From Terriglobales bacterium (GTDB lineage Bacteria; Acidobacteriota; Terriglobia; Terriglobales; Acidobacteriaceae), in contig JBKQLO010000165.1 of assembly GCA_052147055.1 (NCBI GenBank), positions 1,419-65,418 of the forward strand: a stretch of DNA of 64,000 nucleotides, given 5' to 3'. This document shows positions 109 to 49,080 of this stretch, one piece after another. The notes beneath the pieces are model-generated. The model did not search any database and was not told the origin of the DNA. It worked only from the letters and a program-made list of their open reading frames with translations. Each line of letters starts with the position of its first letter. The first letter of the stretch is position 1. The translations under genes and the position numbers were made by a program.

Positions 109-181
109 GGCGAGGAGATTATAGCGGGTGGCGGGGCGCGGAGAGCAGGGATCAGCGCGCTGGGTAGCGTCTTAATTCATC

Positions 182-216
182 AACCACAAAGGACACGAAG
201 GTACACGAAGGAAAAC
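182..216. repeat. periodic repeat family R3 (AACCACAAAGGACACGAAGGTACACGAAGGAAAAC)
   Basis: Three CAC(A/G)AAGG cores start at 185, 194 and 204, a 9-10 bp period. The same motif recurs at 18384, 18462, 44133 and, inverted, at 44184. Confidence 0.8.
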
Positions 217-2335: not shown

Positions 2336-3244
2336 TTGCGCAAGCGTTTTTACATTCTTTTCGTAGCCCGCGGTGAAGATGGGCAGTTGCGCAAGATCCC
2401 CATCCCGGTTCACTACCTATACGTGCTGGTGGTGGGGGCGGCGATTGGCGGTCTGAGTCTCACGGGGATTGCCAGTTCCTACTTGCGGATGCTGTTGAAG
2501 GTTTCCCACTTCAATGAACTGCGGGCCCAAAAAGACGAATTGAAGAACCGCTATACCCAACTGGAACAGGTCGCCAAGGAACGCGACATCCAAGTTGCGT
2601 CGCTGGGATCGCTGGCCAACGAGGTTTCTTCGCTTTACGGTTTGAAAACTGATCCGATTCTTACGCCCGCAACCGATACGCTTCAGGACGCGCAGGTCAG
2701 TTCTTCGTTTGACCGCCTGTACACCTTAAAAGACACAGCTTTGAGCGGCGCGGCGGCCACCGGCATTTCTCTTGGGCTGACGCGTGACGCCACCACGGCG
2801 GACTGGCTGCGGGCCAATTCGGCGCCCAGCCTGTGGCCGGTGGAAGGTCCGGTGACGGGATCGTTTGGCGAGCGGACGGATCCGTTCAACGGTGAAGGAG
2901 CGTTCCACAGCGGAGTCGATATCTCGGCTTCTTACGGGCAGCCGGTAATCGCCCCGGCCGACGGCGTGGTGCTATTTGCGGATTTCATGGGCGGTTATGG
3001 ACGGGCCATTGTGATGGACCACGGCCACGGAATCACCACCCGCTACGGACACCTGGCAAACTTCGCGGTGGCGATTGGCCAATACATTCACCGCGGCGAC
3101 ACGATTGGATACGTCGGCCTGAGTGGCCGCAGCACGGGACCACATCTGCATTACGAAGTCCGCATCAACGACACCCCGGTCAATCCCCACAAATACCTTC
3201 GCCTGACCTTCGCGCATAGCGGCGGGTTTGCGGCGGGAAGCTAG
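2336..3244 (+). CDS. M23 family (LytM-type) metallopeptidase with an N-terminal membrane anchor and coiled coil
   Basis: HSGVDISA, the GYGRAIVMDHGHGITTRYGHL block and GPHLHYEV are M23 zinc-ligand blocks. TTG start at 2336, preceded by AAGGAG at 2326-2331. Confidence 0.9.
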   Translation: MRKRFYILFVARGEDGQLRKIPIPVHYLYVLVVGAAIGGLSLTGIASSYLRMLLKVSHFNELRAQKDELKNRYTQLEQVAKERDIQVASLGSLANEVSSLYGLKTDPILTPATDTLQDAQVSSSFDRLYTLKDTALSGAAATGISLGLTRDATTADWLRANSAPSLWPVEGPVTGSFGERTDPFNGEGAFHSGVDISASYGQPVIAPADGVVLFADFMGGYGRAIVMDHGHGITTRYGHLANFAVAIGQYIHRGDTIGYVGLSGRSTGPHLHYEVRINDTPVNPHKYLRLTFAHSGGFAAGS

Positions 3245-8073: not shown

Positions 8074-8109
8074 CGCTCGACCAAAAGGTGGAAGCAACGA
8101 GGCTCCGCT

Positions 8110-8162
8110 GGACAGCCCCTTCGACTTCGCTCAAAGCAGGCTTTGGCGGCTGTCCCCACGCG
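8110..8162. repeat. repeat family R1 (GGACAGCCCCTTCGACTTCGCTCAAAGCAGGCTTTGGCGGCTGTCCCCACGCG)
   Basis: The stem GGACAGCC (8110-8117) pairs with GGCTGTCC (8148-8155) and encloses the conserved CCTTCGACTTCGCTCA..GCAGGC core. Related copies are at 222, 13554, 21868, 47845 and 63973. Confidence 0.8.
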
Positions 8163-9802: not shown

Positions 9803-9833
9803 TGCGGATTTCCACGGATTCGCGCGGATCGAA
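9803..9833. repeat. solo copy of repeat family R4 (three (C/A)GCGGAT cores, about 10-bp period)
   Basis: TGCGGATTTCCACGGATTCGCGCGGATCGAA has the same unit structure and orientation as the left arm at 17419-17448. It begins 13 nt after the moeZ stop. Confidence 0.65.
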
Positions 9834-13038: not shown

Positions 13039-13553
13039 GCTGCGGCGGGGTTAAGGAGAAAGCAACCGGGCCGCAAGGACCTGCTGCTCTCTGCTACAGG
13101 GATTGCGCTCACCTGGGCCGCCAAACCGAGTGTGAGCCAGTCCCTCAACCCCTGAAACTTTTCTTGCGCCGGGCGGGCTGGTTGGTCTGCCCGGCTTTCC
13201 TGTACCTAAACTGATACGCTTCTAGATGCTCGAAAGTTCCTTCCCGGTCTAAATTGCAATCACCCAGTTGGACGGCCTGCCCCACGCAGCGTTAGCAATT
13301 TTGCGATGGCATACAGCCGCCGCTTGTTTAGTCTATTTCAACAAATTGCAATCGCGACAAATCGTGACAAGATTTCACATTTCTTTAACACGAGAGTGCG
13401 AATGCACGCGAGATACCAAGAGTATGGAACGCGCTTTTGTTGATTCCTTGCGAGAAAGCAGGGGAGAGCAGACAACGGGTGTGACCGTTGGCGGGATGCG
13501 GCGTTCGTGAGCGGACAACAGCGGGAGCGGGACGCCCCCGCGACAGCCGGCGA

Positions 13554-13581
13554 GGACCCTTCGACTTCGCTCAGGGCAGGC
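13554..13581. repeat. repeat family R1 core (GGACCCTTCGACTTCGCTCAGGGCAGGC)
   Basis: The core is flanked by a GCCGGCG/CGCCGGC stem. Its right end runs into the qor stop codon at 13590-13592. Confidence 0.75.
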
Positions 13582-13589
13582 CGCCGGCG

Positions 13590-16366: not shown

Positions 16367-16680
16367 GCTTCCTCCGAGGGTACGCTCAACCGGAACTGGC
16401 AGCGTCGCCTCTCTTGGTTCCGCAAATAAAGTGCCAAGTTGCCACCGCAAAGGAACGTGGCGTAAGTTATGGGCAGTCTTAATCTTGCGAGGGCATGGGT
16501 GGTGCGAGGCGACATGAAGATGCTGGCTCACCCGGCAAGAACTGCTCGGTGCGGCGCAAAATGCCTTCCGGTTAGAAGATCTTAACCGCGAAGGGCGCAA
16601 AGGTGATCGCAAAGATCGCGAGGGAAGTCAGGCCGATGATTTGAAACCCTGCCTTCGACCCTCGTATACTTGCAGCCCCG

Positions 16681-17409
16681 ATGAAGGTCGTCGTCATTAT
16701 TCCGGCTGCGGGCCTGGGCACGCGTATGGCCTCGGCTGCGAGCATCAAGGGCAAGAAGCCTGCCGCTTCCAAACAATTTACTGAACTCGCCGGCACCCCG
16801 ATTCTTATTCACACCCTGCGTAAGTTTGCCGCCAGCGCGGAGGTGACAGAGATCTGCATCGCACTGCGCGCGAACGAAATCGCGGGCTTCCGCACGCGTC
16901 TGGAAAAAGAAGCCAAGGACGTTGTGAAGAAGAAAATTCAGTTCGTGGAAGGCGGTGAGCACCGGCAGCAGTCGGTAGCTCATGCCCTGACAGCAATTTC
17001 GGCGGCGGCGGATGATATTGTTCTGGTCCATGACGCGGTGCGGCCTTTCGTCACGGCGGAAATTATTCATGAAGTAATTGAGGCCGCCCGGAAATATGGC
17101 GCTGCCGTTGCCGGAGTGCCTGCGGTGGACACGATCAAGGAAGTGCAGCGCACGGCGGAAGGCGCAGTGATCACGGCGACCATCCCGCGGGAACGCGTAG
17201 TGATGGCGCAAACGCCGCAAGGCTTCCGTTACGAGGTGCTGAAGAAAGCCTTCGATGAAGCGACCGCCGACGGATTTCTGGGGACTGACGAGGCTTCTCT
17301 GGTGGAGCGATCAGGACATGAAGTGGCGGTGGTGATGGGATCGGCGCGCAATATAAAGATCACCACGCCGGCAGACTTGGAGTTGGCGGAGTTCTATTTG
17401 GGGAAGTGA
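16681..17409 (+). CDS. ispD: 2-C-methyl-D-erythritol 4-phosphate cytidylyltransferase
   Basis: IIPAAGLGTRM, VLVHDAVRP and QTPQGF blocks. Confidence 0.92.
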   Translation: MKVVVIIPAAGLGTRMASAASIKGKKPAASKQFTELAGTPILIHTLRKFAASAEVTEICIALRANEIAGFRTRLEKEAKDVVKKKIQFVEGGEHRQQSVAHALTAISAAADDIVLVHDAVRPFVTAEIIHEVIEAARKYGAAVAGVPAVDTIKEVQRTAEGAVITATIPRERVVMAQTPQGFRYEVLKKAFDEATADGFLGTDEASLVERSGHEVAVVMGSARNIKITTPADLELAEFYLGK

Positions 17410-17416
17410 CCCCGTT

Positions 17417-17905
17417 TTCGCCGCGGATTTACGCGGATGAACGCGGATCAATCTTAGGTCTTTGAGCTTAAACTTGCGGCATGCATTCCGTTATCGGCCT
17501 GAAGCATGCTGAATTGAGTGAGAAGATCATCGGCGTGTTCTTTGATGTCTACAATGAGCTGGGGCACGGTTTTCTGGAAAGCGTGTACGAAGAAGCGATG
17601 GGCATGGCTTTGATTGAAACCGGTATCAGCGTGCAACAGCAGGTTCCGATTAAGGTTTGGTTTCGAGGTCGTCGCATCGGAGATTTCAAGGCAGACATGC
17701 TGGCTGATGGAAAAGTGCTACTGGAACTCAAGGCTGCCCGCGGCGTCGATGTTGCCTACGAAAAGCAGTTGCTGAACTACCTTCGGGCAACGGACGTAGA
17801 AGTTGGATTGCTGCTCAACTTCGGTGTAAAACCTGAGTTCAGGCGTTTCGCCTTTGTGAACCAAAGAAAAGAAATCCGCGTTGATCCGCGTAAATCCGCG
17901 GCGAA
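17417..17905. mobile_element. inverted-repeat-bounded cassette carrying a GxxExxY gene (putative non-canonical mobile insert)
   Basis: The arms at 17419-17448 and 17874-17903 are 29/30 complementary, extendable to 32 bp. Each arm has three CGCGGAT cores at an exact 10-bp spacing. The cassette sits between ispD and ispF. No transposase is present. Confidence 0.5.
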
Positions 17906-17921
17906 CGAGGGGTGGGCTTGA
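17481..17921 (+). CDS. GxxExxY family protein (PD-(D/E)XK-like fold family)
   Basis: GFLESVYEEAM contains GxxExxY. The size and the LELKA... block are typical of the family. The C-terminal 16 aa are encoded by the right repeat arm and flank, and the stop overlaps the ispF start. Confidence 0.8.
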   Translation: MHSVIGLKHAELSEKIIGVFFDVYNELGHGFLESVYEEAMGMALIETGISVQQQVPIKVWFRGRRIGDFKADMLADGKVLLELKAARGVDVAYEKQLLNYLRATDVEVGLLLNFGVKPEFRRFAFVNQRKEIRVDPRKSAANEGWA

Positions 17922-18385
17922 GAATTGGCTATGGGTGGGATTCGCATGAGTTCAAGGCGGGCATTCCGCTGAAGATTGGTGGCGTGACTTTGCCGCACTC
18001 CCACGGCCTGGGCGGACATTCGGATGGCGATGTGCTTTTACATGCTTTGACGGATGCTCTGCTGGGCGCGGTAGCCGCTCCCGACATTGGCACTTTGTTT
18101 CCGCCTTCGGATGCAAAGTGGAAGGGCGCGGACTCGGCAGTGTTTTTGCGGGAAGCGCTGAAGCGGGTGAGCGCTGCGGGTTACACGATTGAAAACGTCG
18201 ATTCCACCTTGATTCTTGCGGCGCCTAAGATTGGGCCACACGCGGTGGCGATTCGTGAGAGCGTCGCGAAGCTGCTTGGCATTTCTACGGATTGCGTTGG
18301 GCTTAAGGCCAAGACTCCAGAAGGTACGGGTACCGATAATGCCGCCATCGCGCATGCGGTGATCTTGCTGGAGAAAGAGCGTTAA
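17912..18385 (+). CDS. ispF: 2-C-methyl-D-erythritol 2,4-cyclodiphosphate synthase
   Basis: RIGYGWDSHEF, GHSDGDVLLHAL and PKIGPH blocks. The true start may be the TTG at 17918, giving (M)RIGYG. Confidence 0.92.
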   Translation: MGLRIGYGWDSHEFKAGIPLKIGGVTLPHSHGLGGHSDGDVLLHALTDALLGAVAAPDIGTLFPPSDAKWKGADSAVFLREALKRVSAAGYTIENVDSTLILAAPKIGPHAVAIRESVAKLLGISTDCVGLKAKTPEGTGTDNAAIAHAVILLEKER

Positions 18386-18417
18386 CCACGAGGGACGCCA
18401 AGGTTCACAAAGGAAGG
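18384..18417. repeat. repeat family R3 copy
   Basis: AACCACGAGGGACGCCAAGGTTCACAAAGGAAGG. It overlaps the ispF stop codon. Confidence 0.75.
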
Positions 18418-18461
18418 CTTTGGGGCGTTCAGGGTTAGGCGCTGTCTAGAAAAAAAGCGCT

Positions 18462-18496
18462 AACCACAAAGGACACCAAGGTTCACAAAGGAAATC
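18462..18496. repeat. repeat family R3 copy (direct orientation relative to 18384)
   Basis: AACCACAAAGGACACCAAGGTTCACAAAGGAAATC. Confidence 0.8.
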
Positions 18497-18529: not shown

Positions 18530-19684
18530 GTGTCGATTGCCTTCAAAATTGAAGCCACCAGCGGCGAGGCGCGGGCGGGGCGGTTAATTACGCCTCATGG
18601 CGAAGTCGAAACGCCTGTGTTTATGCCGGTGGGGACGCTGGCGTCGGTCAAAGGCGTGTCGCAGGACGTGCTCGAAGAACTGGGCGTCCAAATTCTTCTG
18701 GGCAACACTTATCACCTGTACCTGCGGCCGGGGATCGAGCAGATCAGAAAGCTGGGTGGCCTGCATCGCTTTATGGCGTGGCCGCGGGCGATTCTGACTG
18801 ACTCGGGCGGCTTCCAGGTCTTCAGCCTCAACGAACTGCGCAAGGTCACAGAAGAAGGCGTGACGTTTCGTTCGCATCTGGATGGGTCTTCGCATTTCTT
18901 CAGTCCGGAGAGTGCGATGGAGGCACAGATCGGGCTGGGGGCGGACATTATTATGGCGTTCGACGAGTGCACGGAGTATCCGGCGGATGCAGAGCGGGTG
19001 CGCCAGTCGATGGAGCTGACGCTGCGCTGGGCGGAGCGGAGTAAGAAATGTTTTGAGGAGCATAAGGAAGAAGTGCCGTGGGGGGCGCACTGCGGCTCGC
19101 GGGAGGCGGACAAGAGTGTCCGCCCCACACGAGCGGATCAGACTCAGGCGCTCTTTGGCATTGTCCAAGGTGGAATGGATGCGGCGCTTCGAAAAGAATC
19201 TGCCGAGCGGACCATCGAGATTGGATTCCCCGGTTATGCCATTGGCGGGCTGAGCGTGGGTGAGCCTCGAGCCTTGACTAGAGAGATAGTCGAGTCCACG
19301 GTCGCCCATCTGCCTGCGGACAGGCCCCGCTATCTGATGGGGGTGGGAACTCCGGAGGAAATTGTGGAATACGCCGGTCTGGGCATCGACATGATGGATT
19401 GCGTACTGCCGACGCGGGCGGCGCGGCATGGTTTGCTGTTCACATCGGAGGGGAAAGTCTCAATCAAGCAGGCGCGGTATGCAGGAGATGAAGGTCCGCT
19501 CGATGCCAAATGCGGCTGCCGGGTGTGTTCCCGGTATTCTCGGGCCTACCTCCGGCATTTGTATGCGTCGAACGAGGTCTTGGCCCAGGTTTTGAACACC
19601 GTCCACAACCTGAGCTTCTACCTTGACACGATGCGCGCGGTGCGTCATTCTATTGCACTTGGGAGAGGGGCCCGCTTTCTCTGA
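18530..19684 (+). CDS. tgt: tRNA-guanine transglycosylase (queuine insertion)
   Basis: TPVFMPVGT, ILTDSGGFQVFSL, ALFGIVQGG and the C-terminal CxC..C zinc site. GTG start. The gene contains a repeat-derived insert at 19105-19134. Confidence 0.92.
   Translation: MSIAFKIEATSGEARAGRLITPHGEVETPVFMPVGTLASVKGVSQDVLEELGVQILLGNTYHLYLRPGIEQIRKLGGLHRFMAWPRAILTDSGGFQVFSLNELRKVTEEGVTFRSHLDGSSHFFSPESAMEAQIGLGADIIMAFDECTEYPADAERVRQSMELTLRWAERSKKCFEEHKEEVPWGAHCGSREADKSVRPTRADQTQALFGIVQGGMDAALRKESAERTIEIGFPGYAIGGLSVGEPRALTREIVESTVAHLPADRPRYLMGVGTPEEIVEYAGLGIDMMDCVLPTRAARHGLLFTSEGKVSIKQARYAGDEGPLDAKCGCRVCSRYSRAYLRHLYASNEVLAQVLNTVHNLSFYLDTMRAVRHSIALGRGARFL
19105..19134. repeat. repeat family R2 (GGCGGACAAGAGTGTCCGCCCCACACGAGC) inside tgt
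   Basis: 30/30 identical to 48596-48625. Perfect hairpin GGCGGACA-AGAG-TGTCCGCC. Confidence 0.9.
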
Positions 19685-21853: not shown

Positions 21854-21867
21854 GTGCCGGGCAGGGC

Positions 21868-21895
21868 GGACCCTTCGACTTCGCGCAGGGCAGGC
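21868..21895. repeat. repeat family R1 core (GGACCCTTCGACTTCGCGCAGGGCAGGC)
   Basis: Lies in the 97-nt secD-secF spacer. Confidence 0.75.
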
Positions 21896-21950
21896 TAAGG
21901 GCAAACGCCGGTAAGTGAATCGTAATCGTCAAGAAACGGGGTCCTGTTAG

Positions 21951-46314: not shown

Positions 46315-48981
46315 TTGGAATTAAGGGGTCGTTTCTTTATCTTGTCCTTCCTCTCCCAACTTAATCCGCAGCAGCGCGAAGCGGTGGAAACCACCGAGGG
46401 GCCGGTGCTCATTCTGGCGGGCGCGGGAAGCGGCAAGACGCGGGTCATCACCTACCGCATTGCCTATCTGATCGAACACATGAACGCGATGCCGGAATCC
46501 ATTCTGGCGATGACTTTCACCAATAAAGCCGCCTCCGAGATGGTGGAGCGCGTGGACAAACTGGTCGGTGGGTTGTCGATCGCCAAGCCGGTCATTTCTA
46601 CTTTTCATTCTTTTTGCGTGCGGTTGTTGCGGCGGGACGTTGAGGCGCTGCGGATTCCCTCCTCGACTCCCGGCGCTCCCCCGATTGGGCTTACCAAGAG
46701 CTTTGTGATCTATGACGAGAGCGACCAGCAGCAGCTGGTCAAGTCGATCATGAAGCGTCTGGGCATCGACGACAAGCAAACCACGCCGCGTTCGGCCCTC
46801 GGTCACATCTCGTGGGCCAAGAACCATATGCTCGATCCGCAGGAAGCTTACCTGCAATCGGCCGATCCCAAGACTGAGCGCGTGGCGCATATTTATGCGG
46901 AGTATAAGAAAGATCTGGCCAAGGCCAATGCGCTTGATTTCGACGACTTGCTTCTTGAAGCGGTGCGCCTGCTGAAAGCGGTGCCGGCGGTGCGCGACCA
47001 CTACAACCGGCGATTTCAATACATTCTGGTGGATGAGTATCAGGACACCAACCGTCCGCAGTATGAACTGATGCGGCTGCTGGCCGGAGACCGTCACAAC
47101 GTGTGCGCGGTAGGCGATGAAGATCAGTCGATCTATTCCTGGCGGGGCGCGGACATTCGCAACATCCTGGAGTTTGAAGCTGATTTCCCTGAGGCCAAGA
47201 TTGTGCGCCTGGAAGAAAATTACCGTTCGACGCAGAACATTTTGCAGGCGGCGTCGGCGGTGGTTGCCAATAACATCAAGCGCAAGGGCAAGAACCTCTG
47301 GACTGCGCGCCAGGGCGGCACCAAGATCGGATATTACGAAGCTCCGGATGGCGAGAACGAGGCCTTGTTCGCGGCTGACTACCTGGCGAAGTATTTGCGG
47401 GAAACAGTCGAGCGCGGCGAAAACGGGCGGGCGGCGGTGCTGTATCGCACCAACTCGCAGTCGCGGCTGTTTGAAGAGGCCATGCGGCGCTATCAATTGA
47501 AGTATCACGTGGTGGGCGGATTTTCGTTCTATGAACGCACCGAAATTAAGGACATGATTTCGTATTTGAAGGTCATCCACAATGTGGACGACTCGATTGC
47601 ACTGCTGCGGGTGGTTAACACGCCGGTGCGCGGAATCGGCCGGACCACGATGGAAACGGTGGAGCAGATCGCGCTTGAGGGTGGGGTTTCTTTGTGGGGC
47701 GCGATTGGGGAAGCGATCCGGCGGCAGCTATTGCCGCAGCGGGCAGTCGCGGCGCTGAAGAGCTTTCGCAGTTTGATTGAAGATGGGCGGGCGATGCTGG
47801 CAGGGAGCTACTTGGAAAGGTTGGAGACGACAGCGGAATCTGCGGAGCTTCGCTCCTCAGGACAGCCCCTTCGGCCTCACTCAGGGCAGGCTCAGGGGGC
47901 TGTCCCCACGCGAGATGAGGAGACCGACACGGATTTCGATCCGGAGAACTTCAGTTTTGACTTTCACCCAGATGCCGAGCGTAGCGCCGGCGACCCGCCG
48001 GCTGTCGAGGGGGCGTCAACCCCCCCTGACGATGCGATCTCCACGCAACCCTTTCGCACTCCTGGCGCTGCCGCCAATACCGCCGAAATCCTGAAATTCT
48101 TGATTGATCGCACGGGATACATCAAGCAACTGGAGGAAGAAGACACACCGGAAGCGTATTCGCGCATCGAGAACTTGCGCGAACTGGTGAATGCGGCCAT
48201 GGATTCGCGCGACCGCGGCGAGACGCTTGACCAGTTTCTCGACCATGCGGCGCTGGTCAGCGATGCCGATGCCTATGATGAACGGGCCCAGATTACGCTC
48301 ATGACCTTGCATGCGGCCAAGGGGCTGGAGTTTCCGCTGGTATTTCTTTGCGGGCTCGAAGAAGGCTTATTCCCGCACTCACGGACTTTCTTGCAGCCGG
48401 ACGACATTGAGGAAGAACGGCGGTTGTGTTACGTCGGCATGACGCGGGCGATGGACACGCTGATCTTGAGCCGGGCGGTGTACCGTCGGCGCTATGGGAC
48501 AGATTTGCCGGAAGCCAGCGTGCCGTCGCGCTTCTTGGAGGAAATCCCGCCGCAGCTGGTGGAAGAGTTGGGGGCTTCGCGCGGAGCGACGGCGGGGCGG
48601 ACAAGAGTGTCCGCCCCACACGAGCATGGTTCGACCCACTACGCGTATGAAGACGAAGATCAAAGCGCGAACTGGGCTGCGGGCGGCCACGGAAAGGCGG
48701 CTCCGGCTGCGTATTCCGGGCGCAGCTACAATTCGATCGAGAACATTGCTGAGTTTTTTGCGTCGCGAGGCAAGAAGTTCAGCGTGGCCAAGCTGCCGGT
48801 CGAAGAGCCGAAAGGAAGGAAAGGCTTCCGGCCGGGACAGAGAGTGCGGCATCCGAAGTATGGCGAAGGCACGGTGTATCAGCGAGAAGGAGAAGGTGAG
48901 GAAGCCAAAATTACGGTACAATTCCCGAGGTTCGGCTTGAAGAAGCTGGTGGAGAAGTATGCCCAGCTGGAGCGGGCCTAA
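46315..48981 (+). CDS. uvrD: UvrD/PcrA/Rep-family ATP-dependent DNA helicase
   Basis: LNPQQREAV, AGAGSGKT, VDEYQDTN, YRS.Q.I, LMTLHAAKGLEF, VGMTRA and a C-terminal Tudor-like GQRVRHPKYGEGTV. The start is uncertain (TTG at 46315 or TTG at 46342). Two repeat-derived in-frame inserts. Confidence 0.9.
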   Translation: MELRGRFFILSFLSQLNPQQREAVETTEGPVLILAGAGSGKTRVITYRIAYLIEHMNAMPESILAMTFTNKAASEMVERVDKLVGGLSIAKPVISTFHSFCVRLLRRDVEALRIPSSTPGAPPIGLTKSFVIYDESDQQQLVKSIMKRLGIDDKQTTPRSALGHISWAKNHMLDPQEAYLQSADPKTERVAHIYAEYKKDLAKANALDFDDLLLEAVRLLKAVPAVRDHYNRRFQYILVDEYQDTNRPQYELMRLLAGDRHNVCAVGDEDQSIYSWRGADIRNILEFEADFPEAKIVRLEENYRSTQNILQAASAVVANNIKRKGKNLWTARQGGTKIGYYEAPDGENEALFAADYLAKYLRETVERGENGRAAVLYRTNSQSRLFEEAMRRYQLKYHVVGGFSFYERTEIKDMISYLKVIHNVDDSIALLRVVNTPVRGIGRTTMETVEQIALEGGVSLWGAIGEAIRRQLLPQRAVAALKSFRSLIEDGRAMLAGSYLERLETTAESAELRSSGQPLRPHSGQAQGAVPTRDEETDTDFDPENFSFDFHPDAERSAGDPPAVEGASTPPDDAISTQPFRTPGAAANTAEILKFLIDRTGYIKQLEEEDTPEAYSRIENLRELVNAAMDSRDRGETLDQFLDHAALVSDADAYDERAQITLMTLHAAKGLEFPLVFLCGLEEGLFPHSRTFLQPDDIEEERRLCYVGMTRAMDTLILSRAVYRRRYGTDLPEASVPSRFLEEIPPQLVEELGASRGATAGRTRVSAPHEHGSTHYAYEDEDQSANWAAGGHGKAAPAAYSGRSYNSIENIAEFFASRGKKFSVAKLPVEEPKGRKGFRPGQRVRHPKYGEGTVYQREGEGEEAKITVQFPRFGLKKLVEKYAQLERA
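47845..47912. repeat. full-length R1 repeat inside uvrD
   Basis: GAGCTTCGCTCCTCAGGACAGCCCCTTCGGCCTCACTCAGGGCAGGCTCAGGGGGCTGTCCCCACGCG. The stem 47860-47869 pairs with 47896-47905 (10 bp perfect). It is translated as ELRSSGQPLRPHSGQAQGAVPTR. Confidence 0.85.
48596..48625. repeat. R2 repeat inside uvrD
   Basis: 30/30 identical to 19105-19134. Translated here as GRTRVSAPHEH. Confidence 0.9.
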
Positions 48982-48987
48982 TGCACA

Positions 48988-49080
48988 TTTGTGATTTGCA
49001 ATTGAGTAATTGGTAATTTGAGATTGCCCATTGCTGAGTTGCACAATTACCAATTGCAAATTACCAAATTACAAATCAAA
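48988..49080. repeat. AT-rich island of AATT(A/G)C / CAATTG units in inverted orientation (family R5)
   Basis: AATTAC, AATTGC, AATTAC and AATTAC start at 49045, 49052, 59 and 67 (7-8 bp period). Left 49010-49020 pairs with right 49057-49067, giving an 11-bp AT-rich stem. It begins just after the uvrD stop. Confidence 0.7.

Follow-up and report, generated by a model that had tools for sequence, protein, structure and literature searches.

The stretch of DNA analysed here (the window) comprises 64,000 nt of a metagenome-assembled genome from the Terriglobales (Acidobacteriota), in which ispD and ispF are separated by a gap of 508 bp with a single open reading frame (ORF) inside. The ORF encodes a GxxExxY protein of 146 amino acids and, together with the inverted heptamer arrays that bracket it, makes up the cassette that is the subject of this study (Table 1). 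An initial annotation of the window had described an insert of about 500 bp that splits the two genes and is bounded by arms of three CGCGGAT cores each, at an exact spacing of 10 bp; profile matches identify all three genes, and both arms lie where they had been placed, with the core spacing as described. The left arm is non-coding and starts 8 nt past the ispD stop. The right arm lies inside the 3′ end of the ORF, where it encodes IRVDPRKSAAN, and the tail of the ORF product, EIRVDPRKSAANEGWA, results from read-through of this arm, as had been proposed. Also as proposed, the stop codon of the cassette ORF overlaps the start of ispF, which is either GTG at 17912 or, more likely from the MRIGYG N-terminus of the product, TTG at 17918; a Shine-Dalgarno-like sequence of ispF stands directly outside the right arm. 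An inverted-repeat search of the window paired 40 nt on each side (17409-17448 and 17874-17913) at 90% complementarity. The part of the arms that is conserved in relatives is that listed in Table 1, and the complementarity that runs outward to 17409 in the window copy is not a general feature. The three-core pattern, with up to 3 mismatches allowed, occurred 3 times in the window against 0.03 times expected from shuffles. The third of these copies is a solo array of the same family, which the initial annotation had also picked out; it lies 13 nt past the stop of an upstream ORF and has no inverted partner. No second GxxExxY gene was found in the window by tblastn, and the only promoter-like site in the region is upstream of ispD.

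Table 1. Features of the window that bear on the ispD-ispF cassette and on related arrays
Feature	Position (nt)	Strand	Description
ispD (2-C-methyl-D-erythritol 4-phosphate cytidylyltransferase)	16681-17409	+	PF01128 (7e-62), TIGR00453 (1e-66); upstream slot boundary; stop TGA at 17407-17409
Left terminal inverted repeat	17417-17448	+	TTCGC, then three CGCGGAT cores (17422-28, 17432-38, 17442-48) with 3-nt spacers
Variable spacer, left arm to start codon	17449-17480	+	Unconserved among orthologous loci
GxxExxY protein gene (146 aa)	17481-17921	+	PF13366 (2e-36), TIGR04256 (6e-35); domain at nt 17511-17849; stop TGA at 17919-17921
Right terminal inverted repeat	17874-17905	+	Three ATCCGCG cores (17874-80, 17884-90, 17894-900), then GCGAA
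Shine-Dalgarno-like sequence of ispF	17906-17911		GAGGGG
ispF (2-C-methyl-D-erythritol 2,4-cyclodiphosphate (MEcPP) synthase)	17918-18385	+	PF02542 (1.8e-54), TIGR00151 (4e-52); downstream slot boundary
Promoter-like site	16641-16670		Upstream of ispD
Solo array, same family	9803-9829	+	TGCGGAT-TTC-CACGGAT-TCG-CGCGGAT, 2 mismatches
Gene-less inverted pair, sister family	44130-44218		TTAACC-ACAAAGGA-CACTAAGGAT-CACAAAGGA and its complement, 5-nt loop
Two direct CACNAAGG-type arrays	18379-18415, 18459-18493	+	Directly past ispF
Solo sister-family array	179-213	+	ATCAACC-ACAAAGGA-CACGAAGGTA-CACGAAGGAA
CGCGAAGG/CGCAAAG-type periodic array	16583-16630	+	Upstream of ispD; resembles the Sphingomonad arms by inspection alone

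The cassette protein carries the GxxExxY signature as GFLESVY (residues 30-36) and matched PF13366 (PDDEXK_3) at 125.2 bits against a cut-off of 22, with profile positions 2-117 of 117 covered, and TIGR04256 ('GxxExxY') at 120.2 bits against a cut-off of 35. These were its sole matches in Pfam and NCBIfam, with no hit to HUH/Y1 transposases or to PF05635. In 44 homologues E33 never varies, and conservation of G30 and Y36 is at least 90%; the catalytic residues E33, D72, E82 and K84 (ADM...LELK) are all invariant among 44 orthologues, and their equivalents are at least 90% conserved in 42 diverged representatives. The AlphaFold2 model (mean predicted local distance difference test score, pLDDT, of 82.3; confident over residues 6-126) has a restriction-endonuclease-like alpha/beta core, with a predicted secondary-structure order of H-H-E-E-E-H-E-E. 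The PD-(D/E)XK domain occupies residues 11-123, and residues 127-146, encoded by the right arm and flank, form a disordered tail (pLDDT below 50). The best Foldseek matches in the Protein Data Bank were Cas4 SSO0001, lambda exonuclease and restriction-endonuclease-like structures (E ~1e-3, TM-scores of 0.3-0.5), which are generic PD-(D/E)XK nucleases; no sequence relative was found among solved structures below E = 0.1, and no sequence similarity to characterised homing enzymes was detected. The ratio of nonsynonymous to synonymous divergence (dN/dS) of the gene is 0.087-0.090, compared with 0.06-0.10 for ispD and ispF. The window protein is a predicted PD-(D/E)XK nuclease under strong purifying selection, and its active site, which the initial annotation had proposed to check, is intact at the level of sequence. 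It is a bare nuclease core of ~120 amino acids with no obvious extra DNA-binding domain. Two affiliations were considered and set aside: membership of a known defence system, with no PADLOC match except one weak hit to a generic nuclease-domain model, and spread by phage, with one distant match (32% identity) in 2.9 M viral contigs and no PHROG match. Some members of the wider family are tandem double GxxExxY fusions of ~250-270 amino acids (P0121-P0126, P0195, P0213, P0218 and P0253). Many GxxExxY records in the Joint Genome Institute, UniRef and NCBI collections are misnamed 'iron complex transport system substrate-binding protein', 'Fe3+ hydroxamate ABC transporter substrate-binding protein' or 'RND transporter' (P0289, P0296, P0301, P0307, P0383 and others), which appears to be a propagated mis-annotation.

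The cassette is present at this junction in some relatives of the source organism and is missing from many others. Essentially all of the 120 best homologues (69-100% identical) retain the arm-encoded tail ...KIRVDPR(K/E)SAA..., and five that were looked up (69-91% identical) all lie between ispD and ispF, sometimes with different outer synteny. Both arms, the non-coding left arm included, are kept in the ispD-ispF loci of relatives. A scan with IspF, using one genome per species, yielded 80 Terriglobales loci among the matches listed. The junction holds the cassette in 22 of these species; it is gene-less with two or more cores in 12, gene-less with one core in 11 and gene-less without a core in 32, and in the other 3 ispD is not adjacent to ispF. 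Put differently, the gene is absent in 55 of the 77 species with adjacent ispD and ispF, and 23 of these have leftover cores. Decay products were also recovered: both arms around ~55 nt that include the last ~16 nt of the gene (L022), both arms around a fragment encoding residues 10-42 (L086), and a left arm fused to the last right-arm core (L021). The initial annotation had looked to this junction for empty sites and for target duplications, and it is the former that were found. Arrays outside the slot were present in 8 of the 22 occupied genomes and 3 of the 55 unoccupied ones (p = 0.0014, a comparison that clade structure confounds), a hint that such arrays depend on the gene.

Two cassette types occupy this slot. 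Genes of type A, 75-100% identical to that of the window, lie between CGCGGAT/ATCCGCG arms; those of type B, 55-63% identical to it, lie between CACGGAT/ATCCGTG arms. The same core position differs between the types in both arms and in most or all cores. On a neighbour-joining tree of IspD plus IspF, the two types are intermixed with each other and with decayed and empty sites, even in tight clades. The nearest relative, L017, has flanks about 90% identical to those of the window (83-100% up to the ispD stop and again from the ispF start), but its cassette is 45-65% identical to that of the window, with sharp edges at those two codons; the more distant relative L001, which has a type A cassette, is in contrast ~85% identical to the window throughout. 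This difference indicates that the cassette is exchanged together with its arms, as a unit with sharp edges. As a separate observation, the gene-less ispD-ispF spacers of many relatives hold other short tandem arrays, CCAACGA (7-bp period) and GAAACC(T/A) (8-bp period), directly upstream of ispF and at times after a leftover CACGGAT left arm (L035-L037, L042-L045, L050, L053, L061, L063, L065, L066, L072 and L079-L083).

The arms could in principle act in RNA or in DNA. They pair in the minimum free energy and centroid folds of 17400-17925 (-219.7 kcal/mol, z = -6.2), and the cassette appears to be co-transcribed with the operon, because it has no internal promoter-like site. These features suit an RNA-level element like the intervening sequences (IVSs) of 23S rRNA, in which the arms would form, and be conserved for, a stem of ~32 bp, its cleavage by RNase III would cut out or insulate the cassette RNA, and the gene would be a passenger or act on RNA; the Coxiella IVS has the same layout and is cleaved by RNase III within its stem (PMC4990558). 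However, in 30 occupied slot loci complementarity between the arms is 94% in the cores (526/560) and 63% in the 3-nt spacers (99/157). Arm mismatches comprise 22 G·U against 43 A·C pairs, so that the G·U excess expected of a sense-strand RNA wobble signature is missing. Covariation had first been suspected from the outer ends of the window arms (ACCCC/GGGGT) and those of L002 (AAAACCT/AGGTTTT), but in 24 distinct loci the outer 10 nt matched their own partner arm at 3.0/10 positions and mismatched arms at 2.65/10 (p = 0.13), with no locus-specific complementarity beyond ~4 nt outside the outermost core; a compensatory extension of the stem beyond the arrays was rejected on these grounds. Within the right arm synonymous divergence (pS) falls to 0.42-0.48, from 0.74-0.76 in the domain, which shows nucleotide-level constraint on the arms. 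Taken with the disordered state of the tail that the right arm encodes, these data suggest that what is conserved is a repeated motif and not a continuous RNA stem, though the arms would pair in the transcript. A stem, moreover, needs no internal periodic motif, solo arms exist, translation through the right arm would melt the pairing, neither the window region nor any of 20 diverse loci showed an rRNA context, and the arms have no Rfam match. We regard an IVS-like RNA element as quite unlikely on this evidence, although it could coexist with action at the level of DNA.

To place the window cassette in its family, we turned to GxxExxY genes at large. A HMMER search of 1.84 billion representatives returned 13,146 related clusters (clustered at 50% identity), and many representatives start with MNADERR or MDADQRG and end with IRVHPRESAA, IRENPRESVA or SAFIRG, which are arrays read in frame. 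A metagenome scan with a diverse alignment of 14 sequences gave 80 loci among the matches listed, with genes 42-61% identical to a distant paralogue. In 57 of the 67 testable diverged loci the bracketing inverted repeats scored above every shuffled control, in agreement with the earlier suggestion that other GxxExxY genes would prove to be flanked in this manner. The arms at these loci open with GCC and continue with three or four copies of C(A/G)C(A/G/T)GAT at ~10-bp spacing, with core variants that include CGCAGAT, CACAGAT, CGCGAAT and CGCTGAT, and the distance from the left arm to the domain ranges from 4 to 160 nt in diverse cassettes. Left and right arms share their core variant in 72% of 61 loci, compared with 29% expected. 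The arm formula of the family can be written GCC/CGC-[C(A/G)C(A/G)GAT-NNN]3, sometimes with four copies. In all 847 kb of DNA collected, 226 arrays were counted, compared with 2 once the DNA had been shuffled. A GxxExxY gene lies no more than 250 nt away from 83% of the arrays, a proportion biased upward by the fact that the loci were fetched with the gene itself, and the rest are solo arms and gene-less pairs. Ten gene-less inverted pairs, with loops of 15-94 nt, occur in related loci. Several arrangements of arrays around cassettes were noted in passing. Gene-less arm pairs adjoin full cassettes in tandem or nested form in L100, L109, L116 and L171; the arms face outward relative to the gene in L100, L143, L147 and L152; and L122 carries, downstream of its GxxExxY gene, three CGCGGAT arrays in the same orientation every 92 nt (1187-1397), which looks like tandem amplification of one arm plus spacer.

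The cassettes are compact (median 483 bp, range about 430-600 bp) and occupy a characteristic kind of site. Both neighbours could be called in 27 loci, and in 19 of these the gene runs in the same direction as both of them. On the left, the arm often begins 2-20 nt past the stop of the preceding gene; on the right, it adjoins or overlaps the reading frame of the next one. Among the slots are ispD|ispF, enoyl-CoA hydratase|methylcrotonyl-CoA carboxylase alpha subunit (MCCase-alpha), dapF|LD-carboxypeptidase (ldcA-like), PilS-like kinase|sigma-54 regulator and outer-membrane barrel protein|DUF4388. Very short operon junctions, often of housekeeping genes (ispD|ispF, dapF|ldcA-like and MCCase among those above, and fabD|fabG below), are the typical place of the cassette. 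Gene pairs at least 90% identical all share a slot, and genes 81-87% identical (L114, L119, L157, L171 and L172) stand in non-homologous slots. When these five cassettes were aligned, homology started at (T)CAGCC-ACAGAT and ended at ATCTGCGGCTG(A), with unrelated flanks on either side; since homology is bounded by the arm tips, the arms are true terminal inverted repeats of a mobile unit. Neither the cassette nor those of its neighbours whose Pfam hits were precomputed or scanned include a DDE, serine or tyrosine transposase gene, and the neighbouring genes are unrelated housekeeping genes, none of them consistently linked.

These results show that the cassette with its arms is a unit that has been gained, lost and swapped and that is found at unrelated sites, and so the mobility hypothesised in the initial annotation is upheld. 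An ordinary, vertically inherited operon gene whose palindromes are regulatory or terminator-like could account for the conservation of the ispD/ispF position down to ~55% protein identity and for the co-divergence of the gene with its flanks within each type. Such a gene is, however, difficult to reconcile with patchy presence, with types interleaved on the host tree, with decay products, or with the same architecture in different operons of other phyla (see below), and it is already contradicted by the sharp-edged swap in the nearest relative and by the arm-bounded homology of genes 81-87% identical in unrelated slots; we give it almost no credence.

Two further subfamilies have arrays of their own. 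In cultured Sphingomonas (S. parapaucimobilis and S. sanguinis among them) and Sphingobium (Sphingomonadaceae), one GxxExxY subfamily occupies the fabD-fabG junction of the core operon for fatty-acid synthesis, between arms of three CGCG(A/G)AG cores with a period of 8-9 bp. Its arm-encoded tail, ...SASSRLRVNQ, is conserved, and the core variant changes jointly in both arms. In Bacteroides finegoldii, a GxxExxY gene adjoining radA is bracketed by TTCACC-ACAGAGGA-CGCAGAGGA-CACGGAGGA (CACAGAGGA arms). The latter resemble the gene-less CACNAAGG-type arrays of the window, which are identical to the Bacteroides GxxExxY arms at 23-26 of 35-38 aligned positions; the inverted pair of this sister family, which follows a TAA stop at 44124-44126, matches them at 24-25 of 35-36. 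By this example, the wider proposal of the initial annotation, that the gene-less repeat families of the window are tied to GxxExxY-type proteins, gains support. Arms are not universal: we found none in Prevotella, marginal ones in Treponema, and direct rather than inverted repeats on a Fusobacteria plasmid. Overall, the comparisons show core variants that change together in both arms and that track the gene lineage, as had been predicted of array and paralogue: type A and type B differ in this way, variants are shared between the arms of one locus, and the Sphingomonad and Bacteroides subfamilies each have their own arrays.

Other repeats in and around the window are recorded here in their own right. 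The TAA stop of ispF lies inside the TTAACC terminus of the first of the two direct CACNAAGG-type arrays, and the junction directly downstream of ispF (18379-18493) is a second array hot spot. Relatives have gene-less CACGGAT/CGCGGAT inverted pairs at this position, at about 2967-3085 of their loci (L020, L024, L025, L028, L033, L040, L056, L064 and L076), and the window and L017 are 22-42% identical across the post-ispF stretch, between highly conserved flanks. A dispersed repeat family of about 40-60 nt (...CCCTTCGACTTCGCTCAGGGCAGGC...GGCTGTCCCCACG) occurs at 202-262, 8102-8162, 13548-13587, 21862-21901 and 47852-47912, one copy lying directly beside the solo sister-family array. An exact 30-nt direct repeat, GGCGGACAAGAGTGTCCGCCCCACACGAGC, with a small palindrome of its own inside, is present at 19105-19134 and 48596-48625; the first copy is within the tgt (queuine tRNA-ribosyltransferase) ORF, where it encodes ...EADKSVRPTRA.... 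Finally, an AT-rich inverted repeat at 48987-49076 has 32 nt per arm, 78% complementary, around a 26-nt loop (ATTTGTGATTTGCAATTGAGTAATTGGTAATT...).

We infer that the arrays may be binding or cleavage sites of the encoded nuclease. Our favoured interpretation, which we hold to be reasonably probable, is that the insert is a resident copy of a widespread family of cassettes that have terminal inverted repeats as their ends and whose arrays are the cognate sites of the GxxExxY nuclease. We class it as a selfish cassette of an IVS-like kind, bounded by inverted repeats, and see a substantial chance that it stands for a distinct class of elements based on a nuclease. Under this model, the nuclease would bind or cleave the heptamer arrays, would retain the element in place, and would spread it by homing-like cut-and-repair at arm pairs or empty alleles, without classical DDE-type transposition. 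Neighbouring essential genes would guard the cassette from imprecise deletion, and their conserved sequences would offer homology for exchange between strains. The cassette would be read through from the host promoter, and its stop would be translationally coupled to the downstream gene, which is consistent with the sole promoter-like site upstream of ispD and with the TGA/TTG overlap. Cut-and-repair would explain why target-site duplications are lacking, why swaps are sharp, and why occupied, decayed and empty sites form a cycle, and it would fit the enrichment of outside-slot arrays where the gene is present.

Several observations weigh against this interpretation, besides the sampling bias noted above for the array-gene association. 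Target-site duplications were looked for at 41 cassette boundaries and in the five-way alignment, and none was found; nor is it evident how the element would reach new, non-homologous sites. Within each type, synonymous divergence (dS) of the cassette is about equal to that of the flanking ispD and ispF, which indicates that inheritance is mostly vertical and turnover rare or occasional. The trees on which types and empty sites interleave are based on ~400 amino acids and on genomes that are mostly metagenome-assembled. One relative (L018) has an intact gene and has lost the left arm. In some clades (L114, L119 and L172) core positions 2 and 4 vary within one arm, so recognition by the nuclease would need to be degenerate. 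Families also have different repeat periods (7, 8-9 and 10 bp), and the argument that the cores present one face of the helix loses force: the spacing of one helical turn emphasised in the initial annotation holds for the array family of the window and fails as a general rule, given 8-9 bp in Sphingomonadaceae and 7 bp in the Coxiella IVS. The co-variation of array and gene could come from co-inheritance plus concerted evolution of the arms. Lastly, purifying selection at the level of housekeeping genes is unusual for a purely selfish homing gene, and a host benefit may be involved.

That last point leads to another explanation, in which the cassette is non-autonomous: its arrays would be ends recognised by an unlinked recombinase or transposase, or would be host elements like repetitive extragenic palindromes (REPs), and the GxxExxY protein would be host-beneficial cargo, such as a restriction-like defence or repair enzyme. 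Beneficial cargo would explain both a dN/dS of ~0.09, equal to that of ispD and ispF, and the persistence of two long-lived types at one locus, a sharp-edged two-cassette polymorphism being typical of frequency-dependent selection; the bare nuclease core, the lack of target-site duplications, and the existence of gene-less pairs and solo arms agree with it as well. What counts against it is that each of three array families, in three phyla, goes with a GxxExxY subfamily of its own, which leaves GxxExxY as the sole common factor. No other gene is consistently linked to the cassettes, their neighbours being unrelated housekeeping genes; PADLOC and PHROGs gave no match of note; the subfamily is essentially absent from the viral contigs searched; and genomes with the gene more often have arrays outside the slot. 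We consider the cargo explanation unlikely, but deserving of some weight, and retain the cassette with its own cognate-site nuclease as our preferred reading.

We also compared the cassette with known systems, and at least one defining feature of each is missing or different in it. One of the closest parallels is REPIN-RAYT, in which, as here, one small enzyme gene lies between inverted copies of a short repeat and different enzyme lineages have different cognate repeats. Gene-less doublets and singlets of the repeat lie between genes in REPIN-RAYT genomes; for the cassette family they were seen as one solo arm in the window and ten gene-less pairs in related loci. REPIN-RAYT systems are also, as here, largely vertically inherited under purifying selection (PMC3116915; bioRxiv 10.1101/2021.07.10.451892). 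In contrast, the enzyme of the cassette is a predicted PD-(D/E)XK nuclease (PF13366) and not an HUH/Y1 transposase, its arm is a phased array of three heptamers where a REP is a single imperfect palindrome with a GTAG or CGTC tag, and the gene occupies operon junctions, where it is swapped as a cassette. As its enzyme falls outside the HUH transposases, the cassette can be compared with REP/RAYT by analogy only.

ORF-containing 23S rRNA IVSs, such as those of Coxiella and Leptospira, share with the cassette a length of ~430-760 bp, one small ORF, terminal inverted repeats of ~28-30 bp, and insertion into a transcribed essential locus whose function is not destroyed. In Coxiella, the IVS combines a small ORF with terminal inverted repeats of 28 bp and with terminal GACAGAT heptamers (PMC4990558), which resemble the C(A/G)C(A/G)GAT cores described here, a likeness drawn from the description in that paper and not from an alignment; those heptamers are in tandem, implying a period of 7 bp as opposed to 10 bp in the window. 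The origin and mobility of IVSs are unexplained, and a mobile element has long been suspected (PMC4990558). Unlike an IVS, the cassette lies between protein-coding genes rather than in 23S rRNA helices, and its ORF encodes a predicted PD-(D/E)XK nuclease, whereas that of the IVS encodes the four-helix-bundle protein S23p (PF05635). PF05635 is also the family of the accessory protein Avd of diversity-generating retroelements (DGRs), which links IVS-type ORFs to another class of genetic element. A review of DGRs discusses the family (PMC10053308).

Homing endonuclease genes resemble the cassette in being nuclease-only genes that are present or absent at one conserved site between conserved flanking genes, with sharp edges, degenerate and deleted copies in relatives, and no target-site duplication, and PD-(D/E)XK homing enzymes exist, such as I-Ssp6803I. 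They differ in having no terminal inverted repeats or gene-less derivatives, and the cassette is under purifying selection as strong as that on housekeeping genes. Closely related cassette genes at unrelated sites also mean that the target cannot be one long host sequence, unlike that of homing endonucleases. With miniature inverted-repeat transposable elements and insertion sequences, and with ends such as those of Tn7, the cassette has in common terminal inverted repeats composed of several binding-site-like motifs, short gene-less derivatives made of two ends and a loop, and insertion at many sites. TnsA of Tn7 is itself a PD-(D/E)XK nuclease. The differences here are that the cassette has no DDE, serine or tyrosine recombinase and no target-site duplication, that the only protein it encodes is a nuclease core of ~120 amino acids, and that its insertion is strongly biased to operon junctions, to the direction of the neighbours, and to positions directly past a stop codon. 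The TAACTGA heptamer repeats of Beggiatoaceae and cyanobacteria (PMC4679880) were considered and dismissed as a different phenomenon, being tandem direct repeats with no link to a nuclease. Full-text searches of a literature library by family names and by array sequences found no description of this architecture, and the sole survey found to cover PF13366 gives its function as 'Unknown' (PMC3424549).

Taken more broadly, GxxExxY proteins would be the dedicated enzymes of an unrecognised superfamily of mobile or persistent elements in prokaryotes, minimal cassettes in which a PD-(D/E)XK nuclease recognises the phased short-repeat arrays at the inverted termini and of which the abundant periodic intergenic arrays of Acidobacteriota, Sphingomonadaceae, Bacteroidota and other groups are gene-less derivatives; the superfamily would be a counterpart of REPIN-RAYT and possibly a relative or the origin of 23S rRNA IVSs. 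We advance this extension tentatively, as a serious possibility that falls short of a probable one. If it is correct, then the consequences would reach well beyond one operon, since the PF13366/TIGR04256 family is very large, with more than 13,000 clusters at 50% identity. Thousands of genes now annotated as hypothetical would acquire a functional context, an explanation would be at hand for several families of periodic repeats that lie between the genes of soil and gut bacteria, and the 30-year-old question of the origin of ORF-containing 23S rRNA intervening sequences would become testable. Genome annotation is affected too, in that predicted proteins carry array-encoded heads and tails and cassettes lie inside essential operons such as ispDF and fabDG. 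The Sphingomonas, Sphingobium and Bacteroides carriers are cultured, which makes experiments feasible, and small sequence-specific nucleases with co-evolving 7-bp sites may become tools. A nuclease acting with inverted ends of phased motifs would, in that case, represent a new solution to the problem of persistence, beside DDE, HUH, serine and tyrosine enzymes and homing endonucleases.

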